A DNA stretch of 64,000 nt from Escherichia coli (lineage in GTDB: Bacteria; Pseudomonadota; Gammaproteobacteria; Enterobacterales; Enterobacteriaceae). The notes below the pieces were generated by a model. It made no database searches and was not told the DNA's origin. It saw only the letters and a list, made by a program, of their open reading frames with translations. The stretch lies in the NCBI RefSeq assembly GCF_036507355.1, contig NZ_AP027877.1; one strand, given 5' to 3'. The translations under genes and the position numbers were made by a program. Within the stretch, counting starts at the first letter, position 1, and every line of letters begins with the position of its first letter. Below, in pieces: positions 25,851-41,119 of the stretch.

Positions 25851-26176
25851 GTCGTTTATCTCGCCAGGGAACCGTTTTTACGATTGGCTTCTTAATACAT
25901 AGTCTCCGTTTTACAATGCAAATTGTTTAATATTTATACGTCTGAGCTTCTGTGCTGGTTATAAAGCACCCACTTTCATGAGATCAATTTTAGTATGTTA
26001 TTACATTGCTACGTCTGTTCTTTTCATGACGAATGGCGTTTTTTCTCTTGTTTGTATTTTTCACGAGAGCAATGAGCAGATCAAAATTCCCAAAAACATA
26101 AGATTATTCGCAATGAATCGCCACGGGTTTAACAGACACCTCAGAGTCATTTAAGATGGCTTAAAGAGAGGTGCCC

Positions 26177-26455
26177 ATGAGCGGTAAGCGTTATCCCGAA
26201 GAGTTTAAAATTGAAGCAGTCAAACAGGTTGTTGATCGCGGTTATTCTGTTGCCAGCGTTGCAACACGTCTCGATATCACCACCCACAGCCTTTACGCCT
26301 GGATAAAGAAGTACGGTCCGGATTCTTCCGCTAATAAAGAACAGTCAGATGCTCAGGCCGAGATCCGCCGTCTCCAGAAAGAGCTGAAGCGGGTTACCGA
26401 CGAACGGGACATATTAAAAAAAGCCGCGGCGTACTTCGCAAAGCTGTCCGACTGA
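26177..26455 (+). CDS. IS3-family transposase OrfA (HTH)
   Basis: MSGKRYPEEFKIEAVKQV... HTH and leucine-zipper-like region ending ...KKAAAYFAK, typical of IS3 OrfA. Confidence 0.8.
   Translation: MSGKRYPEEFKIEAVKQVVDRGYSVASVATRLDITTHSLYAWIKKYGPDSSANKEQSDAQAEIRRLQKELKRVTDERDILKKAAAYFAKLSD
26413..26421 (+). promoter_or_regulatory. Candidate programmed -1 ribosomal frameshift site (A-run) for an OrfAB fusion
   Basis: ttaaaaaaag near the end of orfA; orfB lies in the -1 frame relative to orfA. Confidence 0.5.
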
Positions 26456-26511
26456 GGTACGCCTTTATCCGTGACAACACCTGTTGCTGGCCTGTTCGCC
26501 TGCTCTGTCGG

Positions 26512-27324
26512 GTGCTGGATGTTCATCCCAGTGGTTTTTACGCCTGGCTTCAGCAGCCGCATTCACAACGCCATCAGGCAGACCTGAGGCTGACAGGGCA
26601 GATTAAACAGTTCTGGCTGGAATCGGGATGCGTCTATGGTTATCGCAAAATCCATCTGGATCTGCGGGACAGCGGGCAACAGTGCGGAGTGAACAGAGTC
26701 TGGCGACTGATGAAACGTGTCGGGATAAAGGCTCAGGTCGGATACCGGAGCCCGCGGGCACGTAAAGGCGAGGCCAGTATCGTGTCGCCCAACAGGCTCC
26801 AGCGACAGTTCAATCCGGATGCTCCGGATAAGCGTTGGGTAACGGACATAACCTACATCAGGACCCACGAAGGCTGGCTGTATCTTGCCGTGGTTGTTGA
26901 TCTGTTCTCACGCAAAATTATCGGCTGGTCCATGCAATCCCGGATGACAAAGGACATTGTCCTGAACGCACTGCTGATGGCTGTATGGCGCCGTAATCCC
27001 CAAAAACAGGTGCTGGTTCATTCGGATCAGGGCAGTCAGTACACAAGCCATGAGTGGCAGTCGTTCCTGAAATCACACGGCCTGGAGGGCAGCATGAGCC
27101 GTCGCGGTAACTGCCATGATAATGCGGTTGCAGAAAGCTTTTTCCAGTTGTTGAAACGCGAACGGATAAAGAAAAAGATCTACGGAACGCGGGAAGAAGC
27201 CCGCAGCGATATTTTTGATTACATCGAAATGTTTTATAACAGTAAGCGTCGGCATGGTTCCAGCGATCAGATGTCACCGACAGAATATGAAAACCAGTAT
27301 TATCAACGGCTCGGAAGTGTCTAG
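26512..27324 (+). CDS. IS3-family transposase OrfB (DDE/RNase-H-fold integrase core); probably made as an OrfAB fusion starting upstream
   Basis: DDE-type motifs (WVTDITYI..., HSDQGSQYTS, NCHDNAVAESFF). Confidence 0.8.
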   Translation: MLDVHPSGFYAWLQQPHSQRHQADLRLTGQIKQFWLESGCVYGYRKIHLDLRDSGQQCGVNRVWRLMKRVGIKAQVGYRSPRARKGEASIVSPNRLQRQFNPDAPDKRWVTDITYIRTHEGWLYLAVVVDLFSRKIIGWSMQSRMTKDIVLNALLMAVWRRNPQKQVLVHSDQGSQYTSHEWQSFLKSHGLEGSMSRRGNCHDNAVAESFFQLLKRERIKKKIYGTREEARSDIFDYIEMFYNSKRRHGSSDQMSPTEYENQYYQRLGSV

Positions 27325-27342
27325 ATTACCCGTGGCGATTCA

Positions 27343-27555
27343 GTCATCAGTAATTACGCTGTCATCCAGTTTCGCATAACAGATACTGTCATCACCGGCT
27401 TCAATATAGCTGGAAAAATTCTCACTGATGAAGCGGTAGAAAAGGGCACCGAGTACATACTGTTTAAAATCCCATCCATCTACGGAGCCTCTGACATCAT
27501 TGGCAATGGCCCAGATTTGGCGGTGTAGCTCTGCACGCTGCTGAAGGCTTGTCAT
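27343..27555 (-). pseudogene. hsdM: Type I restriction-modification methyltransferase HsdM (type IC, EcoR124I-like), N-terminal 71 codons only, truncated by the IS3-family element
   Basis: MTSLQQRAELHRQIWAIANDVRGSVDGWDFKQYVLGALFYRFISENFSSYIEAGDDSICYAKLDDSVITDD is near-identical to the recalled EcoR124I HsdM N-terminus; the ORF's stop is the terminal TGA/TCA of the IS inverted repeat. Confidence 0.75.
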
Positions 27556-27758
27556 TTTGTATCCTGTTGTATGATTCTTAAGTACTGTTATTGGCCCGAT
27601 TTTATCGTAATTTCATATTGATGACAGGCTTTGTATGTCATACGTTGCACTGAGAGTTCGTTTGCCCGGTTGTGTAGGCAGCGCTCTTTCAGCCAGGTCA
27701 GTAGAAACGTTGCGCTGACGATAAATACTGAAGCCCCAATACCATCGGGGCTGAACGT

Positions 27759-29636
27759 TCAGTCGGTGAGAATTTCTTCATCCGTATCCATTGTGGATGG
27801 TGATGAATCTATTTTTGTTGTAAGAAATACCCGATTCAGTAGTCTTTGCTTCAGGGCGTTTCTTCGCTCATTGTAGAACTCCGGGAAGCGACTGAACTCA
27901 ATATTTTCATCTGAAACTAACAGCATTGATGGCGAATAGTTGTTTGATGGCTGAGATAGCCATTGTTTCAGGGAAGTATCCTGTTTACTTATATTCTGAG
28001 AGTGATTCAGTAAATGAAGATTAGGTATGGTGTCCCAGTGCTCCGGATTTTCATAAAAGCTGAGGTTCTCTGGTGTATTCGCAACATAATCTAATTTTTC
28101 AAGATATTTCTTTGAAAAATGATTTCTTGGGTGAAGGTGATCAATATGAAACACCTCGGTCGGATTCATTTCAGGGAACAGAAGATGCAATAGTGCGCGG
28201 CAACGACCTTCGCCATATCTGATATTGAGAAGGCTTTCGATGTATTCGTCGTCAAATCTGAGGTCTTTATTCGAGCCTTTATATCTGTCAATAATCTTCT
28301 CAAGAGGAAAGTGAATATCTGAAAGACTATTTTTCATTACATCTCTGATACTCGTGAGTAGCGCATCTGCCTGGCTTCCAAAGATCCCTTTCAGAAGTAC
28401 CATGTAAAACCACTGGCTAATTACTGAGCGTTCATTGTGGTTTTTATTCAGGAGATTAATCGTTGTATATAATGGATGTCCACTGGTTTGCTTTTTGTAA
28501 AGCCAGTAGACCACAGGAATGACTGCATTTTTAGATATCAAAGACTGTGGATTGATGCCGAATCGCCTGATAAGAATAAAGGTCTCCTTGATACAGGATT
28601 TTATTTCAGACCATTGTTGTTGTATCTTACCGACCTCCTCTGAAGTGAAGTTTTTTACTTTGAACCGGACGTCAGAGTCAATAAGCATCAGGCTGGTTTT
28701 TAAGAACCAGTCTCTTTCAATATAAAAACCCATTTCATTATTCTGATAAATGTTTTTTGTCAGTTCATCCAGTTCTTTTCTGAAATCACCCTGCCAGTGC
28801 GCTACCGCTATTGACATCAGTAAGTCTGAAAACTCAAGTTTTGTCCCCCCGCTGTTCGTGCGGATGAAAACATCCAGCACATGATCAATGTCCTGACTGC
28901 TCTCATTGAAGTAGTGGATAAGATTCTCAGTTCTTATCTTGGTATAAAGTTTAAGCAGAGTTTTTCTGGAAAATTCACTGGAAATGAGATCTCTTTTTTC
29001 AAGTTCTGGTACGACAACGTTAAATAAAATATCATCAGGCGAATCATGTTGCTCGTATTTGAATATTTCGTGCAGGCAGAACCAGTGATGTTTGTTATCG
29101 GCAAGTGAATCAGTATATTGCTTCTCGGTCAGGAACCTGAAGTTATACTTCATCATGAGCTCATCGTCTGACTTAAGTGGCGCGGTTAAATCGACGTAAA
29201 GCTTTCTGGGTGGCAGGATGCGATCATCCTGTGCCGAAGGCCACCACATCCGGGGCTGTTTATACGCATACGTTCCACACAATCCAATATATAATGATGT
29301 GAGACGCTGCTGACCATCAATCACGGCCTTGAAATCATGAAACCCAGCATTTGTTGCTACGCAGGGGTTTTCTTCATTAAATCGCTGACAGTATTCTTTC
29401 AGGAACTCATAGAATTTGTAATCATTTTTAATACTGGCACTACGGATATCCCACATCATGAAAGAGTTTATCGGGTAGTCTCGCATGATGGAATCAAACA
29501 GCAAACATATCTGACTGCTGCTCCAGACGAACTTCCTCTGAATTGCAGGCAGAAGATAGTGGCGTAAATTAATTGAATCTATCGCTTGTTTTATCGTTAT
29601 TGCTTTTTCATACTGGCCAGCCATCATAAACCTCAT
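27759..29636 (-). CDS. GmrSD-family DUF262 (ParB-like, DGQQR motif) / DUF1524 (His-Me finger) protein; putative type IV modification-dependent restriction endonuclease
   Basis: N-terminal IKQAIDSI...YLLPAIQRKFVWS and IDGQQRLTSL motifs (DUF262); C-terminal FHIDHLHPRNH (DUF1524-like HNH); 625 aa; AT-rich. Confidence 0.75.
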   Translation of the reverse strand: MRFMMAGQYEKAITIKQAIDSINLRHYLLPAIQRKFVWSSSQICLLFDSIMRDYPINSFMMWDIRSASIKNDYKFYEFLKEYCQRFNEENPCVATNAGFHDFKAVIDGQQRLTSLYIGLCGTYAYKQPRMWWPSAQDDRILPPRKLYVDLTAPLKSDDELMMKYNFRFLTEKQYTDSLADNKHHWFCLHEIFKYEQHDSPDDILFNVVVPELEKRDLISSEFSRKTLLKLYTKIRTENLIHYFNESSQDIDHVLDVFIRTNSGGTKLEFSDLLMSIAVAHWQGDFRKELDELTKNIYQNNEMGFYIERDWFLKTSLMLIDSDVRFKVKNFTSEEVGKIQQQWSEIKSCIKETFILIRRFGINPQSLISKNAVIPVVYWLYKKQTSGHPLYTTINLLNKNHNERSVISQWFYMVLLKGIFGSQADALLTSIRDVMKNSLSDIHFPLEKIIDRYKGSNKDLRFDDEYIESLLNIRYGEGRCRALLHLLFPEMNPTEVFHIDHLHPRNHFSKKYLEKLDYVANTPENLSFYENPEHWDTIPNLHLLNHSQNISKQDTSLKQWLSQPSNNYSPSMLLVSDENIEFSRFPEFYNERRNALKQRLLNRVFLTTKIDSSPSTMDTDEEILTD

Positions 29637-29697
29637 ATGTTATATTAGCTGGCCTATTTTAATTTATTGCGTGTCGGTAGTACAGTCTTTGCACAAA

Positions 29698-30027
29698 CTA
29701 ATTTATGCAATGGAAAAGCTGACGGCTCGGTTTGTGTTTTTCATTCGGGTAGACTCGCATTGCGGATGCACAAAGTGATGAAACCTGTCTTGCTATATTT
29801 TTACCGAAGTTAACAAGTAGGCCGTGCTTTATTTTTTCACCCTCTGCCCTGATGCTGATGACAAAGCTGAACTGATATACGATTACCTCAATGAGGTCAT
29901 TGCCAAATGTTATGATGGCGGCGTTGTTTATTTCATATTCATAATCCCTCAGGTCAGTGTTAAGTCTTGCTGTTGCATTTACAAGTGCGTATTCTTTATC
30001 GATAATCATAACTTTCTCACTTATCAT
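29698..30027 (-). CDS. Hypothetical protein (109 aa) immediately upstream of the GmrSD-like gene
   Basis: ATG-initiated ORF on the same strand, 61 bp upstream of the DUF262 gene; no family recognised. Confidence 0.4.
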   Translation of the reverse strand: MISEKVMIIDKEYALVNATARLNTDLRDYEYEINNAAIITFGNDLIEVIVYQFSFVISIRAEGEKIKHGLLVNFGKNIARQVSSLCASAMRVYPNEKHKPSRQLFHCIN

Positions 30028-30067
30028 GTTAATGTGATTTAATCATCACTAATAATATGTTGTGATT

Positions 30068-30781
30068 TTAATTACGATTATTCGTCTGTTTACTCCCGTA
30101 ATGCATTATCTGATGAATAATGTTCATGTGGGGTAAGGCTTCCATAAAGTCAGACTGTTCAATCAGCGAAATGAGTGTGTTATCGATCTCAAACGTTGTA
30201 TCCGGTAATACCTCAACCAGCCTGATTCGGGACAGGGAAATAACGAACACGCCCGATGACGTACATCCGGCAAGAAACCACTCCGCATGGCTGCAAAGCA
30301 GACGATAGGGATGAACGGTATGGCTGACGTTTTCGTCGGTTCTGATACGCACCTTGGTCTGGTTAAGTATGGCGAGCGTTAGTCTGCTGAAATCACCGAA
30401 CAGCGTGGGTTTCTGGCGCGGCTCCGGGAGCATAATCCGGTAGGGTGAAGGGTGCTCCCCGTCAAGCAGAAGGCTCAGCAGTTTGGCATCCATCGCGGGT
30501 AACAGACGGTCAAGATGCAGCAGTCTCGCCAGTATCTTCATATCTCGTTCCGTGCGGCGACGAAAGTAATGTGAGGCAAGCTGATACACGCCGTTGCTCT
30601 GTTCAATATCAAGGTAGGTCAGACGGACGTTGAAATCCCGCCGCAGCGTTCGCGTTGTCACTCCAAATTCTTCTGCCAGCGTCCCGATATGCAGCTTTTC
30701 ACCCTGAAACAAACGGCTCAGGATGATGGAAAGGCGGGTTGCCAGTCTGTCATGTTCGTTTTCTTGTGTTATCAGCGTCAT
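30068..30781 (-). CDS. HTH plus WYL-like domain transcriptional regulator (BrxR/CapW-like candidate)
   Basis: N-terminal HTH_11-like segment (RLSIILSRLFQGEKLHIGTLAEEFGVTTRTLRRDF) followed by a ligand-binding-like domain; sits upstream of a defence gene. Confidence 0.6.
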   Translation of the reverse strand: MTLITQENEHDRLATRLSIILSRLFQGEKLHIGTLAEEFGVTTRTLRRDFNVRLTYLDIEQSNGVYQLASHYFRRRTERDMKILARLLHLDRLLPAMDAKLLSLLLDGEHPSPYRIMLPEPRQKPTLFGDFSRLTLAILNQTKVRIRTDENVSHTVHPYRLLCSHAEWFLAGCTSSGVFVISLSRIRLVEVLPDTTFEIDNTLISLIEQSDFMEALPHMNIIHQIMHYGSKQTNNRN

Positions 30782-30883
30782 ACATCATTTCCGAATTTAG
30801 CCGGGAAATGATGCCAGCAGTAGCGGACAGGATTTGTCCACCCTCTGAAGTTTTTTAAAGTCTGAATACCTTAAATGTAAGTG

Positions 30884-31633
30884 CTAAACGTCAGTATTCT
30901 CAGGTGAATAAAGATGCTTCTGGCGCATGTAGGCAATAAAAATGCAGGATGGTAGCGTCACCCGGTATGCGGGACCGGCTAAATCAATCAGCAGCCAGAG
31001 AGAACTGAGCACCCAGCCCACAGGACCGGCAAAAGCGCCCATGGTACGCGTCAGCATGGCATTTCCTGCAACGGTCAGCCCTCTGCCTAACAGGGCTTTC
31101 GCCACACCATTTGTGACAACAAGTGCCATCTGATAGGCCGCAAACCCGGATGTTTTTATCCCCGCCTGGATTGCCATGGTCAGCAACTCCGGCGTGGGGT
31201 TGCTGTAGCCTGTCTGCAATTCTTCCGCCACGGTCTTTAACTGATCGGGCGTCATCTTCTCAAGGCTTTTCTCCAGGATCTTCATCAGCAGATTCATTTC
31301 AATGGTTTCAACACTGGATTTGTTGTTGTAGTTCACCTTCATTTTATCGCAGGCATCGGTGAGAATTTCCCGGTACGGCACCCCTTTACCCCAGCGGAGC
31401 AGCGTGGCAAAGCTGTTCGCCCCAAACGTCTGAACCTCGGCGGCAATGGCATCCCAGTAGCGCGGGTGGTTGGGCTTGTGTTTTTTATACTGAGGATCAT
31501 AGGTCAGCGTTTCCGTGATGCGTGCCAGTCCGTCTTTCGGATCGCAGATAAGCACAGAAACCAGTAAATCCAGATCGTCACGATGGCAGTGGCGCAGAAA
31601 CTCAAGGTCGGGGTCGTGTCGGTAGGTAGCCAT
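30884..31633 (-). CDS. YaaW-like (UPF0174/DUF3944) protein
   Basis: Resembles recalled YaaW (LEFLRHC..DLDLLV, GPVGWVLSSLWLLIDLAGPAYRVT); 249 aa. Confidence 0.5.
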   Translation of the reverse strand: MATYRHDPDLEFLRHCHRDDLDLLVSVLICDPKDGLARITETLTYDPQYKKHKPNHPRYWDAIAAEVQTFGANSFATLLRWGKGVPYREILTDACDKMKVNYNNKSSVETIEMNLLMKILEKSLEKMTPDQLKTVAEELQTGYSNPTPELLTMAIQAGIKTSGFAAYQMALVVTNGVAKALLGRGLTVAGNAMLTRTMGAFAGPVGWVLSSLWLLIDLAGPAYRVTLPSCIFIAYMRQKHLYSPENTDV

Positions 31634-31774
31634 ATTTCACCTCATTGCAGATATTGGACCTGACAGTTTAAGGAAGCCACCGGACAGGGCTTGTCCGCCT
31701 GAAAAACAAAAAAGTAAAAAAAACCTGCCGAAAGCAGGTTTCTGTTCACCGGATGGAGGTATAACGCGTCGGGA

Positions 31775-32161
31775 TTACTTTCCGCGCCATTCCTTTTCCA
31801 CTTTATCCGCAAAAGCATCGCACTGCCGGGCATATTCCGGGTTATAGAGCAGCTCCGACTGCGAAAGCTGCATGGCGGTCATGCTGCCGTTACGGGCATT
31901 TGATTCGAGCCAGGTTCTGCCATAGGTTTTGTTCATCACCTGAAGTACCCGGTTGAATACCGGTCCGTTGAAGCGGGCATTGAGATTAACGCCTTTTACC
32001 TGAAGGCCGCTGTCACTGGTCTGGGTCAGGCGGGTGGAGTACATCGCGCAGAAGGTCGAGTTGGTTATCATCTGAGCGTCAGCCTGCTCGTCGGCGAACG
32101 CGCTGTGGCTGAAGGCGGAAAGCAGAATTGTGGCGGTTAACAGTTTTAAAATTTTCATCAT
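31775..32161 (-). CDS. Exported hypothetical protein (signal peptide)
   Basis: N-terminal MMKILKLLTATILLSAFSHSAFA signal peptide; 128 aa. Confidence 0.5.
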   Translation of the reverse strand: MMKILKLLTATILLSAFSHSAFADEQADAQMITNSTFCAMYSTRLTQTSDSGLQVKGVNLNARFNGPVFNRVLQVMNKTYGRTWLESNARNGSMTAMQLSQSELLYNPEYARQCDAFADKVEKEWRGK

Positions 32162-32235
32162 GTTCCCTTATGGATTGAAAAGCGGAGACAGCCTGCCATA
32201 CAGGGTGGTCAGGAGATGTCCGGCAGAGAAAAAAG

Positions 32236-32475
32236 TCAGGGTTTCAGCGAGGGAGCCAGTCGCCAGCGGTGAGGGCCAGCAGATTCGAGCACAAAGGCCA
32301 GTTGAGCGAGGTCCCGTCTTGCGGTCCGGGGAGATACGTCAAACTGCCGGATGATGTAGCGAACAGATATTGTCTGACCGTAAAACAGCACCATGGTCAG
32401 CCGGATGAGCCGTTCTCCCTGTCCGGTAGCGTGTTGCCTGCGACGATTAACGTTCATCGTTGCCATACGCGCCAT
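32236..32475 (-). pseudogene. Short HTH-only ORF resembling the N-terminal domain of a DeoR/WYL-type regulator (possible remnant)
   Basis: GERLIRLTMVLFYGQTISVRYIIRQFDVSPRTARRDLAQL is HTH_11-like; only 79 aa and overlaps the 3' end of the neighbouring gene. Confidence 0.35.
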
Positions 32476-32918
32476 CGGTCCCCTTTCTGAAAAGAATCGA
32501 GGTGTCTGGCAAGCCAGATATCAGGGCATGAATTGCCGGTAACGCAGCGGGCAGTAAACCGGTGGCAGTTAAAGTCGAGCAGGCTGTAGGGATAGCGCTG
32601 ACCCACTGCCGCCTTTGCCCGTTCAGCGGCCTGCGCACAACCCTGAGGCGTCAAATCCATACAATCGGTATACACCGAGATAGCGGAGTTCCAGCCATCG
32701 AGCCGGTCAAGAAACCCTTTAGCCTTACTTTTGATAACGGTTCCATCGCCATCAAGATGAACAATATCGCCGTTACCCACATAGATACCGCTGTGTGCGG
32801 CAAGGCCAAAAAGCAGTTCGCACTGCACGATACCACCGTAAGCCGGTTCATCGACGCAGGAGAGAATGCAGTTATCGATAAATGAATCCACGAAGTTCAG
32901 CAGCAGAAGCCGGTACAT
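32454..32918 (-). CDS. LRAT/NlpC-P60-superfamily protein (start at MYRLLLL)
   Basis: His-containing HSGIYVGNGDIVH followed by a C-terminal NCHRF motif resembling the LRAT catalytic-Cys NCEHF box. Confidence 0.5.
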   Translation of the reverse strand: MYRLLLLNFVDSFIDNCILSCVDEPAYGGIVQCELLFGLAAHSGIYVGNGDIVHLDGDGTVIKSKAKGFLDRLDGWNSAISVYTDCMDLTPQGCAQAAERAKAAVGQRYPYSLLDFNCHRFTARCVTGNSCPDIWLARHLDSFQKGDRWRVWQR

Positions 32919-32976
32919 AACATTCAGTTCCTTACTACGGGGGAGAGGGGGGATGCGGGGGAAACGTAGTGAACAC

Positions 32977-33405
32977 TCAGCTTTCCCACAACGTACGGAC
33001 CGTGAAAACCCCCATATCGTGGTAAGCCATAAAGTTACTTTCCCATAGCGACCAGAACTCACGGGCGTCGACATGAGAGATATCGCCACAACGGGAAAGC
33101 CACGTGTATTGTTGCGTCCAGCTCACATCGACATCTTTTTCAAGCTCAGGCCATGGATGCCCTGCATAATGAAAATCGGTGACGTAATCGAGCTGCCAGT
33201 CTTCTCCGGCAGGGATGAGGCGTATTTCGACCGGATGCCAGCCGCCCTTTTCCGGTGAGTATTCAGGGTCACGGAAGTTAATGGTTAATCCGGTGATGGG
33301 GTGACGATGAGGCGGTTTTTGCGCGAGGATATCCAGAAGCAGTTGGGTGAACGACCGGGAGAGAGGCAGCACATAGCCGCCCTGCAATATTACGGGTGAT
33401 GACAT
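32977..33405 (-). CDS. Hypothetical protein (142 aa)
   Basis: ATG ORF, same strand and closely spaced with neighbours; no family recognised. Confidence 0.45.
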   Translation of the reverse strand: MSSPVILQGGYVLPLSRSFTQLLLDILAQKPPHRHPITGLTINFRDPEYSPEKGGWHPVEIRLIPAGEDWQLDYVTDFHYAGHPWPELEKDVDVSWTQQYTWLSRCGDISHVDAREFWSLWESNFMAYHDMGVFTVRTLWES

Positions 33406-33451
33406 AGTGAATTTCCTGATTTTTGGTTAACAGAACACAGAAAAAGCGGGG

Positions 33452-33883
33452 TTAGTCCTGGCTGAGCGTAGCAAGCTGCGTCATACGATGCTGCCAGTCG
33501 GCATAGCAGCGGTGCATAAAGAGTCTGCTGCTGTCCGCTTCGATAAGGCAGATATCCGGACTTCTGAGTACGGCGGCAAGAAACCCGGCGTTGTTGGTGC
33601 TGCCCTGACCAAATAGTGGTCGAAACACACGCGACGGAAAGCTGTCCTGCTGCTGTTCAAGAATGGCGTGAATCGCATCAAGCGTTATCCATTCACGGGA
33701 GAACAGGCCTCCTTCGCCATTGGCGGTTAAGCGCAGGGCGAGGCTTCCGGTTTCATCCTCCTTACCCAGCTCATACGTCAGCAGTCCCTTACTGTGTGGA
33801 CTGATTTTCTCGGCTTCACCCCTGTAGAACACGGTATAGCTTTCGGTGACGGCGGCTTCGGTAGCGACTTTTTTCTTACTCAT
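33452..33883 (-). CDS. Hypothetical protein (143 aa)
   Basis: ORF whose start overlaps the stop of the upstream gene by 8 nt. Confidence 0.45.
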   Translation of the reverse strand: MSKKKVATEAAVTESYTVFYRGEAEKISPHSKGLLTYELGKEDETGSLALRLTANGEGGLFSREWITLDAIHAILEQQQDSFPSRVFRPLFGQGSTNNAGFLAAVLRSPDICLIEADSSRLFMHRCYADWQHRMTQLATLSQD

Positions 33884-34247
33884 GGTTCAGCGCCTCAATC
33901 AGGTTCTGGAGTTGAGTGATAACGGTCGTGTCCGGGAACACCAGATAGATACCCTGTCCGTTATCGCAGACGATACCGAGCAGGAGATACCAGCCATCAT
34001 CAAGTGCGGTGACGTATTCCGGGTTAGCCAGTGCCACTGCCAGCAGCGGGTCTTCGGGGAGGGTGTCATCGTGGTTGAGATGCCAGAGCAGGGTTCTTGT
34101 TTCTTTCCAGAAAGCAGTAAACAGGTCGATATCATCTACGGGGCCAAGAATTTCATTGCTGAGGGCTTCCAGCGCGGAGGCTGGCAGGTTGAGAAGGGAA
34201 ATACTGGTAGGGGTTGTGAGTTTGTACATAGTTATCTCCATCATCAA
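33876..34247 (-). CDS. Hypothetical protein (123 aa)
   Basis: First gene of a four-gene minus-strand cluster; no family recognised. Confidence 0.4.
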   Translation of the reverse strand: MMMEITMYKLTTPTSISLLNLPASALEALSNEILGPVDDIDLFTAFWKETRTLLWHLNHDDTLPEDPLLAVALANPEYVTALDDGWYLLLGIVCDNGQGIYLVFPDTTVITQLQNLIEALNHE

Positions 34248-34457: not shown

Positions 34458-35163
34458 TGGATTTGCCCCTATATTTCCAGACACCTGTTATCACTTAACC
34501 CATTACTGGCCCGCTGCCGCAGATATTCCCGTGGCGAGCGATAACCCAGCGCACTATGCGGATGCCATTCGTTATAATGCTCGAACGCCTCTGCAAGGTT
34601 CTTTGCTGCCGTTAACCCGTCTGGTTTGGGCATGATACTTATGTAGTCACGCTTTATCGTTTTCACGAAGCTCTCTGCTATTCCGTTACTCTCCGGACTC
34701 CGCACTGCCGTGTTCTTCGGTTCAAGTCCCAACATCCTGGCGAACTGACGTGTTTCATTCGCCCGGTAGCATGAACCATTATCCGTCAGCCACTCCACTG
34801 GAGACGCCGGAAGCTCGCTGCCAAAGCGGCGTTCCACTGCTCCCAGCATGACGTCCTGTACTGTTTCACTGTCGAAGCCACCCGTTGTGACCCCCCAGTG
34901 CAGTGCCTCACGGTCACAGCAGTCCAACGCGAACGTGACCCGCAGTTTTTCTCCGTTATCACAGCGGAACTCAAACCCGTCAGAGCACCATCGCTGATTA
35001 CTTTCTTTCACAGCCACTCTGCCGGTATGTGCCCGTTTCGATGGCGGTACAGCGGGTTTTCGCTCAAGCAACAGCGCATTCTGGCGCATGATCCGGTAAA
35101 CACGTTTGGCATTGATCGCAGGCATACCATCAAGTTCTGTTTGTCTGCGAAGCAGCGCCCATA
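34458..35163 (-). mobile_element. IS2 fragment (right-hand about 0.7 kb: 3' part of insD plus the right inverted repeat); the left half is missing
   Basis: tggatttgcccctatatttccagacacctgttatcacttaa at 34458-34498 matches the recalled IS2 right IR; the adjacent ORF matches InsD from [10 protein letters not shown] to ...NRCLEI. Confidence 0.85.
34469..35125 (-). pseudogene. insD: IS2 transposase InsD, C-terminal about 218 codons only
   Basis: Translation matches the recalled InsD C-terminal two-thirds; homology extends upstream to about 35163 ([12 protein letters not shown]) and then stops. Confidence 0.85.
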
Positions 35164-35636
35164 ACGCAGCCCTTGCCTTACTGGTGTTTCTGGCCCTGAC
35201 CGGATTACGCCTTGGTGAAACCCGTTATCTTCTGCTTGAGGATATCGACTGGTCCCGTCAGACCATCACTTTGCGAGAAACTAAAAACGGTAAGCTTCGC
35301 TGTGTGCCAGTGGGTGATAAGGCCTTTGTTCTTCTGACTGAGCAGCGCCAGCACTTGGGCGATAAAGGCTGGGTTTTCCCCGGCTATAACACAACTAATC
35401 CGGTTGCAGAACCACGCCGTCTGCAAAAGCGTATATGTGAGAAAGCCGGTATTTCACCATTCACTATTCATGAGATGCGACACACTTTCGCCACGAAACT
35501 TATCGAGAGTGGGGCTGACATCCATACCATCAAAGATTTACTGGGCCACAGCACCATAAAGGTTACCGAGAGGTACCTACATGGCAGCCCGGTGCGCTAC
35601 CACGAGGCCATTAACAAGGCGATGGATACGTTCTAG
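35160..35636 (+). pseudogene. Tyrosine recombinase (phage-type integrase), C-terminal catalytic domain only, N-terminus replaced by the IS2 fragment
   Basis: [17 protein letters not shown] (box I), HEMRHTFAT and LLGHSTIKVTERYLH (box II with catalytic Tyr) motifs; abuts the IS2 fragment. Confidence 0.7.
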
Positions 35637-40066: not shown

Positions 40067-41119
40067 ATGGGGATCATCGTACGAATTCTTAAAGCTAACC
40101 ATGGCGATTGCATTTTGGTGAGCCATGAAAGCGGTTCAGGCACTCTCAACTTGCTCATTGATGGGGGACCTGCGACGACATTCAGGTATGGCATTAGGCA
40201 GCGCTATTCTGGAGCATTGAGTAACGCTCTCGATGATCTGAAAGGAAAGGGGCAAAACATTGATCTGGCTATCCTGACCCACATTGATGATGATCACATA
40301 AATGGTTTTATCAAGGCATTCGAAAGTCCAAACTATCTGCGTCAGCTGGTTAAATCGATCTGGTTCAATTCTTCGAGGTTAATCACACATCATTTTAATG
40401 TGCCTGAAATTTGTGAAAATAATATTTTCTTGCAGGAAGTTTCCCCTGAAACTAGCGTTAAACAGGGGCAAGAACTTGAGGCATTACTTGATGAAATCGG
40501 ATGTGTGCGAGCACCGCTCATTATGGCAGGGCAAATCTACAAAGTAGGCCCGATTACTTTAACAGCACTTTCACCTGAACGAAGACAACTCGAACAGCTT
40601 TTGCATAAGTGGCCAACGGAAGTAAGTTCAGCTGACACTTCTTCATATGAGAATGATTATCACCGTTCATTGGACGAAATTTGGGCAGATGATAGATTTG
40701 AATCTGACTCATCTATTTATAATGGAAGCTCAATTGCATTTTTACTGGAAACAGATGACAAAAAAATGCTTTTTTTAGGAGACGCCAATGACCAAGTTGT
40801 TACAAAAAATTTAAGAGCATTGGGCTATAGCGAAACAAACAAGTTGAAGCTGGATCTGGTTAAAGTTTCGCATCATGGTAGTCAATACAACACAAGCAAC
40901 GAATTTCTTTCAATACTAGATTCTCCATGCTTTGTTATTTCAACCAATGGTTCGAAGCATGGTCTTCCTAATAAAAGGACTATTGCAAGGATCTTAAAGG
41001 AAACAGATGGTGATATTTATTTTAATTACAGCAATGTAATTACTCCGCTGCTTTTAGCGCATGAAGCTGAGAGCTATTCTTCTCGTCTAAAAGTGCTAGG
41101 TGATGAGATTAAATTCTAA
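40067..41119 (+). CDS. Metallo-beta-lactamase-fold hydrolase (candidate nuclease/effector); gene 1 of the candidate defence operon
   Basis: MBL motifs HGDC, THIDDDH, SHHGS; 350 aa; AT-rich. Confidence 0.7.
   Translation: MGIIVRILKANHGDCILVSHESGSGTLNLLIDGGPATTFRYGIRQRYSGALSNALDDLKGKGQNIDLAILTHIDDDHINGFIKAFESPNYLRQLVKSIWFNSSRLITHHFNVPEICENNIFLQEVSPETSVKQGQELEALLDEIGCVRAPLIMAGQIYKVGPITLTALSPERRQLEQLLHKWPTEVSSADTSSYENDYHRSLDEIWADDRFESDSSIYNGSSIAFLLETDDKKMLFLGDANDQVVTKNLRALGYSETNKLKLDLVKVSHHGSQYNTSNEFLSILDSPCFVISTNGSKHGLPNKRTIARILKETDGDIYFNYSNVITPLLLAHEAESYSSRLKVLGDEIKF

Follow-up and report, generated by a model that had tools for sequence, protein, structure and literature searches.

A BrxU-type gene of the GmrSD family as probable cargo of a pheV-type island in Escherichia coli

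The locus and its three genes

The stretch of DNA analysed here (the window) comprises 64,000 nucleotides of contig NZ_AP027877.1 from the Escherichia coli assembly GCF_036507355.1. It resembles an E. coli chromosome, with glcB and glcA at 21.6-25.8 kb and a tRNA-Phe gene at 46900-46975. Our subject is three minus-strand open reading frames (ORFs) in this window, located at 27759-29636 (625 amino acids, aa), 29698-30027 (109 aa) and 30068-30781 (237 aa), with a spacing of about 60 bp. The initial annotation, made from the sequence alone, had reported three same-strand ORFs in this interval and had read them as a BrxR/BrxU-like type IV restriction module, that is, a modification-dependent nuclease of the GmrSD family preceded by a small ORF of unknown role and by a WYL-type regulator. 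Our analysis assigns the largest ORF to the BrxU type of the GmrSD family and indicates, with good confidence, that it is a cargo gene at the variable end of a pheV-integrated island, the two upstream genes (here called WYL237 and orf103) being island genes and not part of the enzyme. The genes and domains concerned are the following.

27759..29636, minus strand: BrxU-like gene (PDB 7p9k, E 5e-99; PADLOC HEC-05, PDLC04151, 766 bits)
28809..29591, minus strand: DUF262 / GmrSD_N nucleoside triphosphatase (NTPase) domain of the BrxU-like protein, residues 16-276 (Pfam PF03235, 1.9e-33)
27957..28229, minus strand: C-terminal HNH (DUF1524-type) nuclease region of the same protein, approximately residues 470-560 (aligns with the DHIYP region of BrxU)
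29698..30009, minus strand: orf103, last conserved gene of the island backbone, with a predicted IS200/TnpA-like fold lacking the HUH motif
30068..30781, minus strand: WYL237, a predicted short helix-turn-helix (HTH)-WYL transcription regulator without a WCX domain (Pfam, PADLOC WYL, Foldseek)

The guanine-plus-cytosine (GC) fraction drops to 0.39-0.41 across the 625-aa gene. Among 5426 complete E. coli genomes, 65 contain the whole 4.4-kb locus at an identity of 97-99.8%. Complete copies of WYL237 and orf103 occur in 106 E. coli genomes and of the BrxU-like gene in 114 (about 2%), a discordance which was explained by insertion sequence (IS) insertions in all three loci inspected. Taken together, the placement of the ORFs, their motifs, the domain matches and the recurrence of the locus go far beyond chance.

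The BrxU-like enzyme and its type I partner

The largest gene is named only "DUF262 domain-containing protein" in RefSeq, and its probable start is M4 at 29627, which matches the RefSeq call. A phmmer search against PDB sequences gave a sole match, 7p9k (E 5.1e-99), which is BrxU of Escherichia fergusonii pEFER (PMC8565348); residues 9-600 align collinearly with residues 2-575 of BrxU, at 37% identity over 565 aligned positions. The PADLOC profile HEC-05, which corresponds to BrxU according to the preprint of Payne et al., covers residues 4-604 (E 5.4e-231) and gives 766 bits, against 771 bits for BrxU itself, used as a control in a sequence reconstructed from the alignment.

The DUF262 domain proposed in the initial annotation on account of its DGQQR motif was recovered by Pfam GmrSD_N. 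The translation reads VIDGQQRLTSL at residues 104-114, with DGQQR itself at D107-R111 (codons 29304-29318), and D107, Q109, Q110 and R111 align with D98, Q100, Q101 and R102 of BrxU. The same domain contains an LLFDS motif, the counterpart of the nucleotide-binding RLFDS motif, whose S49 pairs with S42 of BrxU, a serine that BrxU requires for its function; the first residue of the motif is a leucine, whereas BrxU has an arginine there, and the R38A mutant of BrxU is still phage-resistant (PMC8565348). In the C-terminal region the motif FHIDHLHPRNH is found at residues 496-506 (DHLHP codons at 28128-28142), with an NL..N motif farther downstream, and D499 and H500 align with the catalytic pair D474 and H475 of BrxU. 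All seven BrxU residues compared (S42, D98, Q100, Q101, R102, D474 and H475) are identical in the new protein, which thus retains all those found essential by mutagenesis. In BrxU, S42 has been linked to dimerisation, the DGQQR residues to nucleotide hydrolysis and, by direct mutagenesis, D474/H475 to nuclease activity (PMC8565348; Payne et al. preprint). The BrxU layout is thus kept over the full length, as DUF262, helical linker and HNH, together with the (R/L)LFDS, DGQQR and DH(I/L)(Y/H)P motifs. Three of the differences (R38L, N485K and N519I) fall at mutated positions that are non-essential or weakly important in BrxU; E528Q also differs.

On the evidence of its sequence, the 625-aa protein belongs to the GmrSD family and, within it, to the BrxU type, as the initial annotation had supposed. 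The DUF262 domain is also common to SspE-like and DndB-like families, and at only 37% identity to BrxU the protein might be taken for a phosphorothioate sensor of the SspE kind or a DndB-like regulator instead of a modified-cytosine nuclease. This is highly improbable, as the SspE profile matches 14 residues only (E 4.6e-5) against the 766 bits of HEC-05, the protein is collinear with BrxU from end to end and has the HNH motif, and there are no dnd or ssp genes in the neighbourhood. Both readings were discarded on the profile scores.

BrxU cuts DNA containing 5-methylcytosine (5mC), 5-hydroxymethylcytosine (5hmC) and glucosyl-5hmC in an ATP-dependent manner (PMC12409352), and we infer the same general cleavage of modified-cytosine DNA for the BrxU-like protein. 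Its N-terminal DUF262 domain would bind and hydrolyse nucleotide and its C-terminal HNH domain would cleave DNA carrying 5mC, 5hmC or glucosyl-5hmC. Phages that evade classical restriction by modifying their DNA would thereby be restricted.

The BrxU-like gene has a neighbour of which the window keeps only a trace. In E. coli GPEC1189 an intact type I restriction-modification (RM) operon, hsdMSR, lies 3' of the BrxU-like gene and is co-directional with it. In the window we found

27340..27555, minus strand: hsdM remnant, first 71 codons (100% identical to the N-terminus of GPEC1189 HsdM)

with hsdM broken off beyond its 71st codon by an IS3-family element (26171-27324), and hsdS and hsdR missing from the window. 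The IS3-family element adjoins glcA, and hsdS, hsdR and flanking chromosome appear to have been deleted (26171-27555). Elsewhere, 259 Klebsiella plasmids carry the BrxU-like gene together with an intact hsdMSR at about 94% identity, as do a Klebsiella phage record of 110 kb and four of five phage-plasmid-like IMG/VR contigs; the remaining contig ends inside the BrxU-like gene. A scan of viral contigs with a narrower orf103 alignment recovered only this phage-plasmid-like BrxU-hsdM module. WYL237 is absent from all of these plasmids, contigs and the phage record, and of orf103 they have only a remnant that lacks its start and part of its interior and is interrupted by an IS5-family element.

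Type I RM systems often contain embedded GmrSD-like genes, BrxU among them (Payne et al. preprint). The functional unit consists of the BrxU-like gene and the type I hsdMSR; such a combination of type IV with type I has been described before for GmrSD-like genes. Since the type I system attacks unmodified DNA, it would complement the BrxU-like enzyme in the relatives; here the partner has been lost to the IS. The type I RM-associated GmrSD systems, such as TgvAB of Vibrio cholerae VPI-2 and those embedded in type I RM and Hma systems, likewise have a type IV enzyme co-directional beside hsdMSR and would give a similar complementary coverage of modified and unmodified DNA. However, TgvAB consists of two proteins within the cluster, whereas the BrxU-like enzyme is a single protein encoded upstream of hsdM, with the type I genes destroyed by the IS in the window. 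BrxU itself sits inside a plasmid BREX operon, in contrast to the BrxU-like gene, which belongs to the cargo of a pheV island in the chromosome and precedes a type I hsdMSR.

For the most part the find is an ordinary one: a known family gains a member and current understanding is not overturned. It does allow a gene present on hundreds of Klebsiella plasmids and in about 2% of complete E. coli genomes to be named properly, as a BrxU-type type IV restriction enzyme.

WYL237, orf103 and the island backbone

The HTH-WYL regulator that had been placed upstream on the same strand is indeed there: WYL237 matches Pfam HTH_DeoR (6e-6) and, weakly, WYL (5e-4), and the PADLOC WYL profile (229 positions) matches it end to end (4e-15). 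Of the WYL and WCX domains, for which a search had been proposed, only the first is present. We obtained no match to WCX (PF25583) in WYL237; only about 45 residues lie C-terminal of the WYL domain, and an alignment with a 304-aa relative that carries WCX (P0098) leaves a gap of about 65 residues at the WCX position. The AlphaFold model of WYL237 is mediocre (predicted local distance difference test score, pLDDT, 66), its confident parts being the HTH and WYL domains. Its best Foldseek matches are CapW (3e-7), BrxR (4e-7), PafBC and DriD, in a range of 3e-7 to 1e-5 with low template modelling (TM) scores. When all PDB sequences, which include 7qfz, 7t8k and 7tb5, were searched with the single sequence (phmmer) and with a family profile of 11 homologues, neither BrxR nor CapW was found at E<=10, and the best match was the PafBC WYL domain (5e-6). 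The BrxR family has been delimited by a BLASTP E<1e-5 to BrxR (PMC9122601), and WYL237 falls outside it when phmmer and the family profile against PDB sequences are taken as a proxy. Judged by sequence, WYL237 is a short HTH-WYL regulator of the BrxR architectural class and not a member of the BrxR family by the published sequence criterion.

WYL237 shares with BrxR and CapW (7qfz, 7t8k, 7tb5), the best structural matches of its model, an N-terminal HTH, a central WYL domain and a leader with inverted repeats; in the BrxU-carrying lineages it also precedes defence genes, as they do. It differs in having 237 aa and no WCX dimerisation domain, whereas BrxR and CapW are wHTH-WYL-WCX proteins of 270-300 aa. 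It is tied to no single defence system; its conservation follows that of the island backbone and of a JukA-like gene. Its leader contains two inverted repeats:

30822..30842, minus strand: palindrome GG(T/C)GGACA-N5-TGTCC(A/G)C(C/T), candidate WYL237 operator (conservation in 10 loci)
30783..30813, minus strand: perfect 10-nt inverted repeat CATCATTTCC-N11-GGAAATGATG, abutting the WYL237 start codon and partly conserved

The GGACA-N5-TGTCC core is invariant in all ten loci, including one whose regulator is only 66% identical, and one arm position is changed on both sides, from T-A to C-G. This palindrome is likely to be the WYL237 operator, through which the regulator probably controls its own expression. 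Folded together as RNA, both leader hairpins have a z-score of -4.06, and these elements may act as DNA or as RNA.

To place the three genes in context, maps of backbone and cargo were drawn by tblastn over more than 20 fetched loci. The island is chromosomal and of a pheV-type integrase/DUF927 kind. Its backbone has the integrase and a DUF927 primase-helicase on one strand and a divergent operon on the other, in the order h123 - h143 - DUF2787 - LRAT - HTH79 - 128-aa ORF - YaaW/JukA-like - WYL237 - orf103. The DNA found 3' of orf103 depends on the lineage. E. coli, Pseudocitrobacter, Mixta and three species of Enterobacter have the BrxU-like gene and hsdM there. In Hafnia, Limnobaculum, Pectobacterium, Kluyvera and Morganella the place is taken by unrelated genes of the opposite strand, and in locus L026 by a DUF6708 gene. 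WYL237 is accordingly upstream of and co-directional with the cargo in the BrxU lineages, and in the five genera with opposite-strand genes the cargo is convergent. Nucleotide homology between lineages stops in the last codons of orf103, which in the loci without BrxU is usually followed by a terminator-like hairpin. WYL237 and orf103 are the last genes of a conserved backbone, and the DNA beyond them is variable cargo. A literature search on this backbone (DUF927 and DUF2787) found no paper.

These observations bear on the module proposed in the initial annotation, in which WYL237 would be a dedicated BrxR-type repressor of an operon orf103-BrxU-(hsdMSR), which it would release on phage infection, as BrxR does for the BREX/BrxU island of pEFER. 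WYL237, orf103 and the BrxU-like gene do lie on one strand with gaps of about 60 bp and no terminator-like site between them, there are conserved palindromes upstream of WYL237, and its structural class is that of BrxR and CapW. However, in six other lineages WYL237 and orf103 precede unrelated cargo, which is mostly convergent and usually lies beyond a terminator-like hairpin, and the BrxU-like gene with hsdMSR persists without WYL237 on the 259 Klebsiella plasmids. Moreover, WYL237 matches neither BrxR nor CapW in sequence at E<=10, and it has no WCX domain. We consider such a dedicated repressor unlikely, and the BrxR/BrxU reading of the initial annotation is supported in part only: the enzyme and the order of the genes stand, and no support was obtained for a functional module of the three genes or for a regulator of the BrxR family. 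WYL237 and orf103 are fixtures of the island and are kept with unrelated cargos; a WYL regulator next to a defence gene does not by itself show that the two form a dedicated regulatory pair.

We therefore return to the BrxU-like gene as island cargo. WYL237 would be the island's own regulator, found together with the JukA-like gene. Between the latter (YaaW) and the BrxU-like gene no terminator-like site was found except weak stems within the coding sequence of WYL237; upstream of YaaW, at 31719-31743, a strong terminator-like hairpin separates it from the 128-aa ORF. Because the cargo is read in the same direction, with no terminator in between, transcription of the WYL237/orf103 unit could continue into it, and we infer that such read-through may add to the expression of the BrxU-like gene in this lineage. 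It would be an accident of insertion and not a conserved pairing.

Some points weigh against this interpretation. In islands the BrxU-like gene is always co-directional with WYL237 and orf103, at a spacing of 61 bp and without a terminator, and a genuine co-regulation of these genes may exist. A scan of 27300-32300 for sigma-70 promoters gave 6 sites against 8.3 expected by chance, hence no usable promoter call and no convincing sigma-70 promoter of its own for the BrxU-like gene. As for the enzyme, its nuclease activity and phage restriction are attributed by analogy with BrxU, and at 37% identity its substrate preference could differ. The protein also gave no match to Pfam GmrSD_C (DUF1524, PF07510) at E<=10. 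The DUF1524 domain expected from the FHIDHLHPRNH motif is thus borne out by the alignment of that motif with DHIYP of BrxU and not by the Pfam model. As BrxU itself reaches only i-E 0.012 with this model, below the threshold, the missing match is uninformative and reflects a weakness of the model, not of the protein. Pfam DUF1524 was dropped as a membership test, being too insensitive for the BrxU subfamily.

The start of the BrxU-like gene carries a further element:

29615..29654, minus strand: inverted repeat GGCCAGC...GCTGGCC, able to form a hairpin and extending over the start codons of the BrxU-like gene and its GAGG Shine-Dalgarno sequence

Locally it folds with a z-score of only -1.6. 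In all BrxU-carrying loci the repeat is unchanged, which makes a covariation test impossible.

The small ORF had been described as a 109-aa ORF on the same strand with no recognised role. Strand and lack of a family match stand; the start is M7 according to homologues and RefSeq, which gives 103 aa. Full-length homologues of orf103 occur in at least 10 Enterobacterales genera and the ratio of nonsynonymous to synonymous substitutions (dN/dS) is 0.22-0.33, which marks it as a real gene under purifying selection. A profile search of 1.8 billion representatives gave 39 clusters of proteins of 100-120 aa. With the single sequence and a 24-member profile nothing was found in Pfam, NCBIfam, PADLOC, PHROGs or PDB sequences. 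The AlphaFold model (pLDDT 81, predicted TM score 0.73) has a beta-alpha-alpha-beta-beta-alpha-alpha-beta topology, and in a Foldseek search of AFDB the best annotated matches, behind uncharacterised proteins, were IS200-type transposases. The HUH motif is absent from all 24 aligned members, none of which has histidines on strand 3 or matches Pfam Y1_Tnp. The modelled fold alone resembles IS200/IS605 TnpA, and the catalytic motifs are absent. TnpA, the Y1 HUH transposase (PDB 2vhg, 2ec2), is the nearest fold; orf103 differs from it in that its strand 3 reads FSFVISI in place of HUH, in its length of 100-120 aa and in having no flanking IS ends. We also considered that the N-terminal half of orf103 might co-vary with the cargo, and rejected this, since identity by halves follows the general divergence with phylogeny.

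Could orf103 serve the enzyme as accessory subunit, antitoxin or specificity factor? It lies directly upstream of the BrxU-like gene on the same strand, and a 3' remnant of it accompanies that gene on the Klebsiella plasmids. Nevertheless, the plasmid copy has neither a start nor its full interior, intact family members occur in islands without any BrxU, and BrxU (HEC-05) was reported in earlier work to act alone as a single protein. Such a role has hardly any probability, and we conclude that orf103 is not an accessory of the BrxU-like enzyme. It belongs to an uncharacterised family, TnpA-like in its modelled fold, at the junction of backbone and cargo; small and well conserved, this unknown family is the only mildly novel element here.

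Distant relatives of orf103 are found in other settings: after LRAT without a WYL or YaaW gene (L024/L025), alone beside an integrase remnant (L023), and between DUF927 and integrase in elements from gut metagenomes (L020-22). In one human gut metagenome contig (L020, 4140-7520) a 107-aa relative overlaps the last part of a DUF927/HTH_56 primase gene as well as the first part of a tyrosine integrase gene, a placement typical of excision or recombination-directionality factors. One may imagine the family, as an inactivated TnpA-like fold without HUH that marks the exact backbone/cargo boundary in several architectures of integrase/DUF927 islands, to be a hairpin- or junction-binding factor in excision control or cargo exchange, with WYL237 giving an infection-responsive read-through into co-directional cargo; we regard this as a rather improbable speculation.

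Neighbouring genes and other cargo

Immediately upstream of WYL237 lies a gene related to the Juk defence:

30884..31633, minus strand: JukA-like YaaW/DUF3944 gene (PADLOC JukA, 6e-72; co-occurrence map)

Seven related lineages carry WYL237 with upstream sequence; a JukA-like gene precedes it in five of them, and a fragment of that gene in a sixth (Morganella). The Juk system joins the JukA sensor to a JukB effector, and no neighbouring ORF matched the JukB profile; JukA-only systems have been reported, and WYL-domain genes are among the most frequent neighbours of jukA (Juk preprint). It is possible, if doubtful, that WYL237 is functionally tied to this gene, the two forming a JukA-WYL defence pair, and is unrelated to BrxU in its function. 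The gene is intact in those five lineages, in the related island L024/L025 the JukA-like gene and WYL237 are missing together, and the neighbourhoods described in the Juk preprint agree with it. On the other side, WYL237 is placed downstream of the JukA-like gene and not upstream, the conserved palindromes are located in the leader of WYL237 itself, and the Pectobacterium locus has a decayed copy of WYL237 and no YaaW match.

Further upstream, the 128-aa ORF (31775-32161, minus strand) encodes a protein that looks secreted and has no family match. The remaining backbone genes at 32236-34247 (minus strand) are a 79-aa HTH gene overlapping a 154-aa LRAT/NlpC-P60-like gene, DUF2787, and hypotheticals of 143 and 123 aa; the last three have matches among PHROG families without known function. 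The tyrosine integrase of the island is truncated by an IS2-like orfB fragment (34469-35636), so that the island is probably immobile.

The slot 3' of orf103 is a practical place to seek new defence genes, given the cargos of Hafnia, Limnobaculum, Morganella and Pectobacterium. The Hafnia cargo (L002, 8666-13014) encodes an SMC-like ATPase of 838 aa and a 611-aa protein, the former matching a PADLOC candidate (PDC-M26A, an untested model). Limnobaculum (L004, 7405-9878) has a trio of 463, 177 and 167 aa, Pectobacterium (L006, 7577-10656) proteins of 714 and 248 aa, and Morganella (L016, 9428-11897) a GHKL/MutL-like ATPase of 671 aa with a 143-aa protein. With the exception of PDC-M26A, none of these convergent cargos matched PADLOC, and we propose them as candidate new defence systems.

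The window also contains a complete Lamassu-type system at 40067-46063 (plus strand), in a block of low GC (0.35-0.40) adjoining tRNA-Phe. It is composed of a metallo-beta-lactamase (MBL)-fold LmuA-type protein of 350 aa (2e-128), a second LmuA-type protein of 439 aa (2e-142), LmuC of 191 aa (3.5e-50) and LmuB of 1043 aa (E 0), and is named 'ABC-three component system' in RefSeq relatives.

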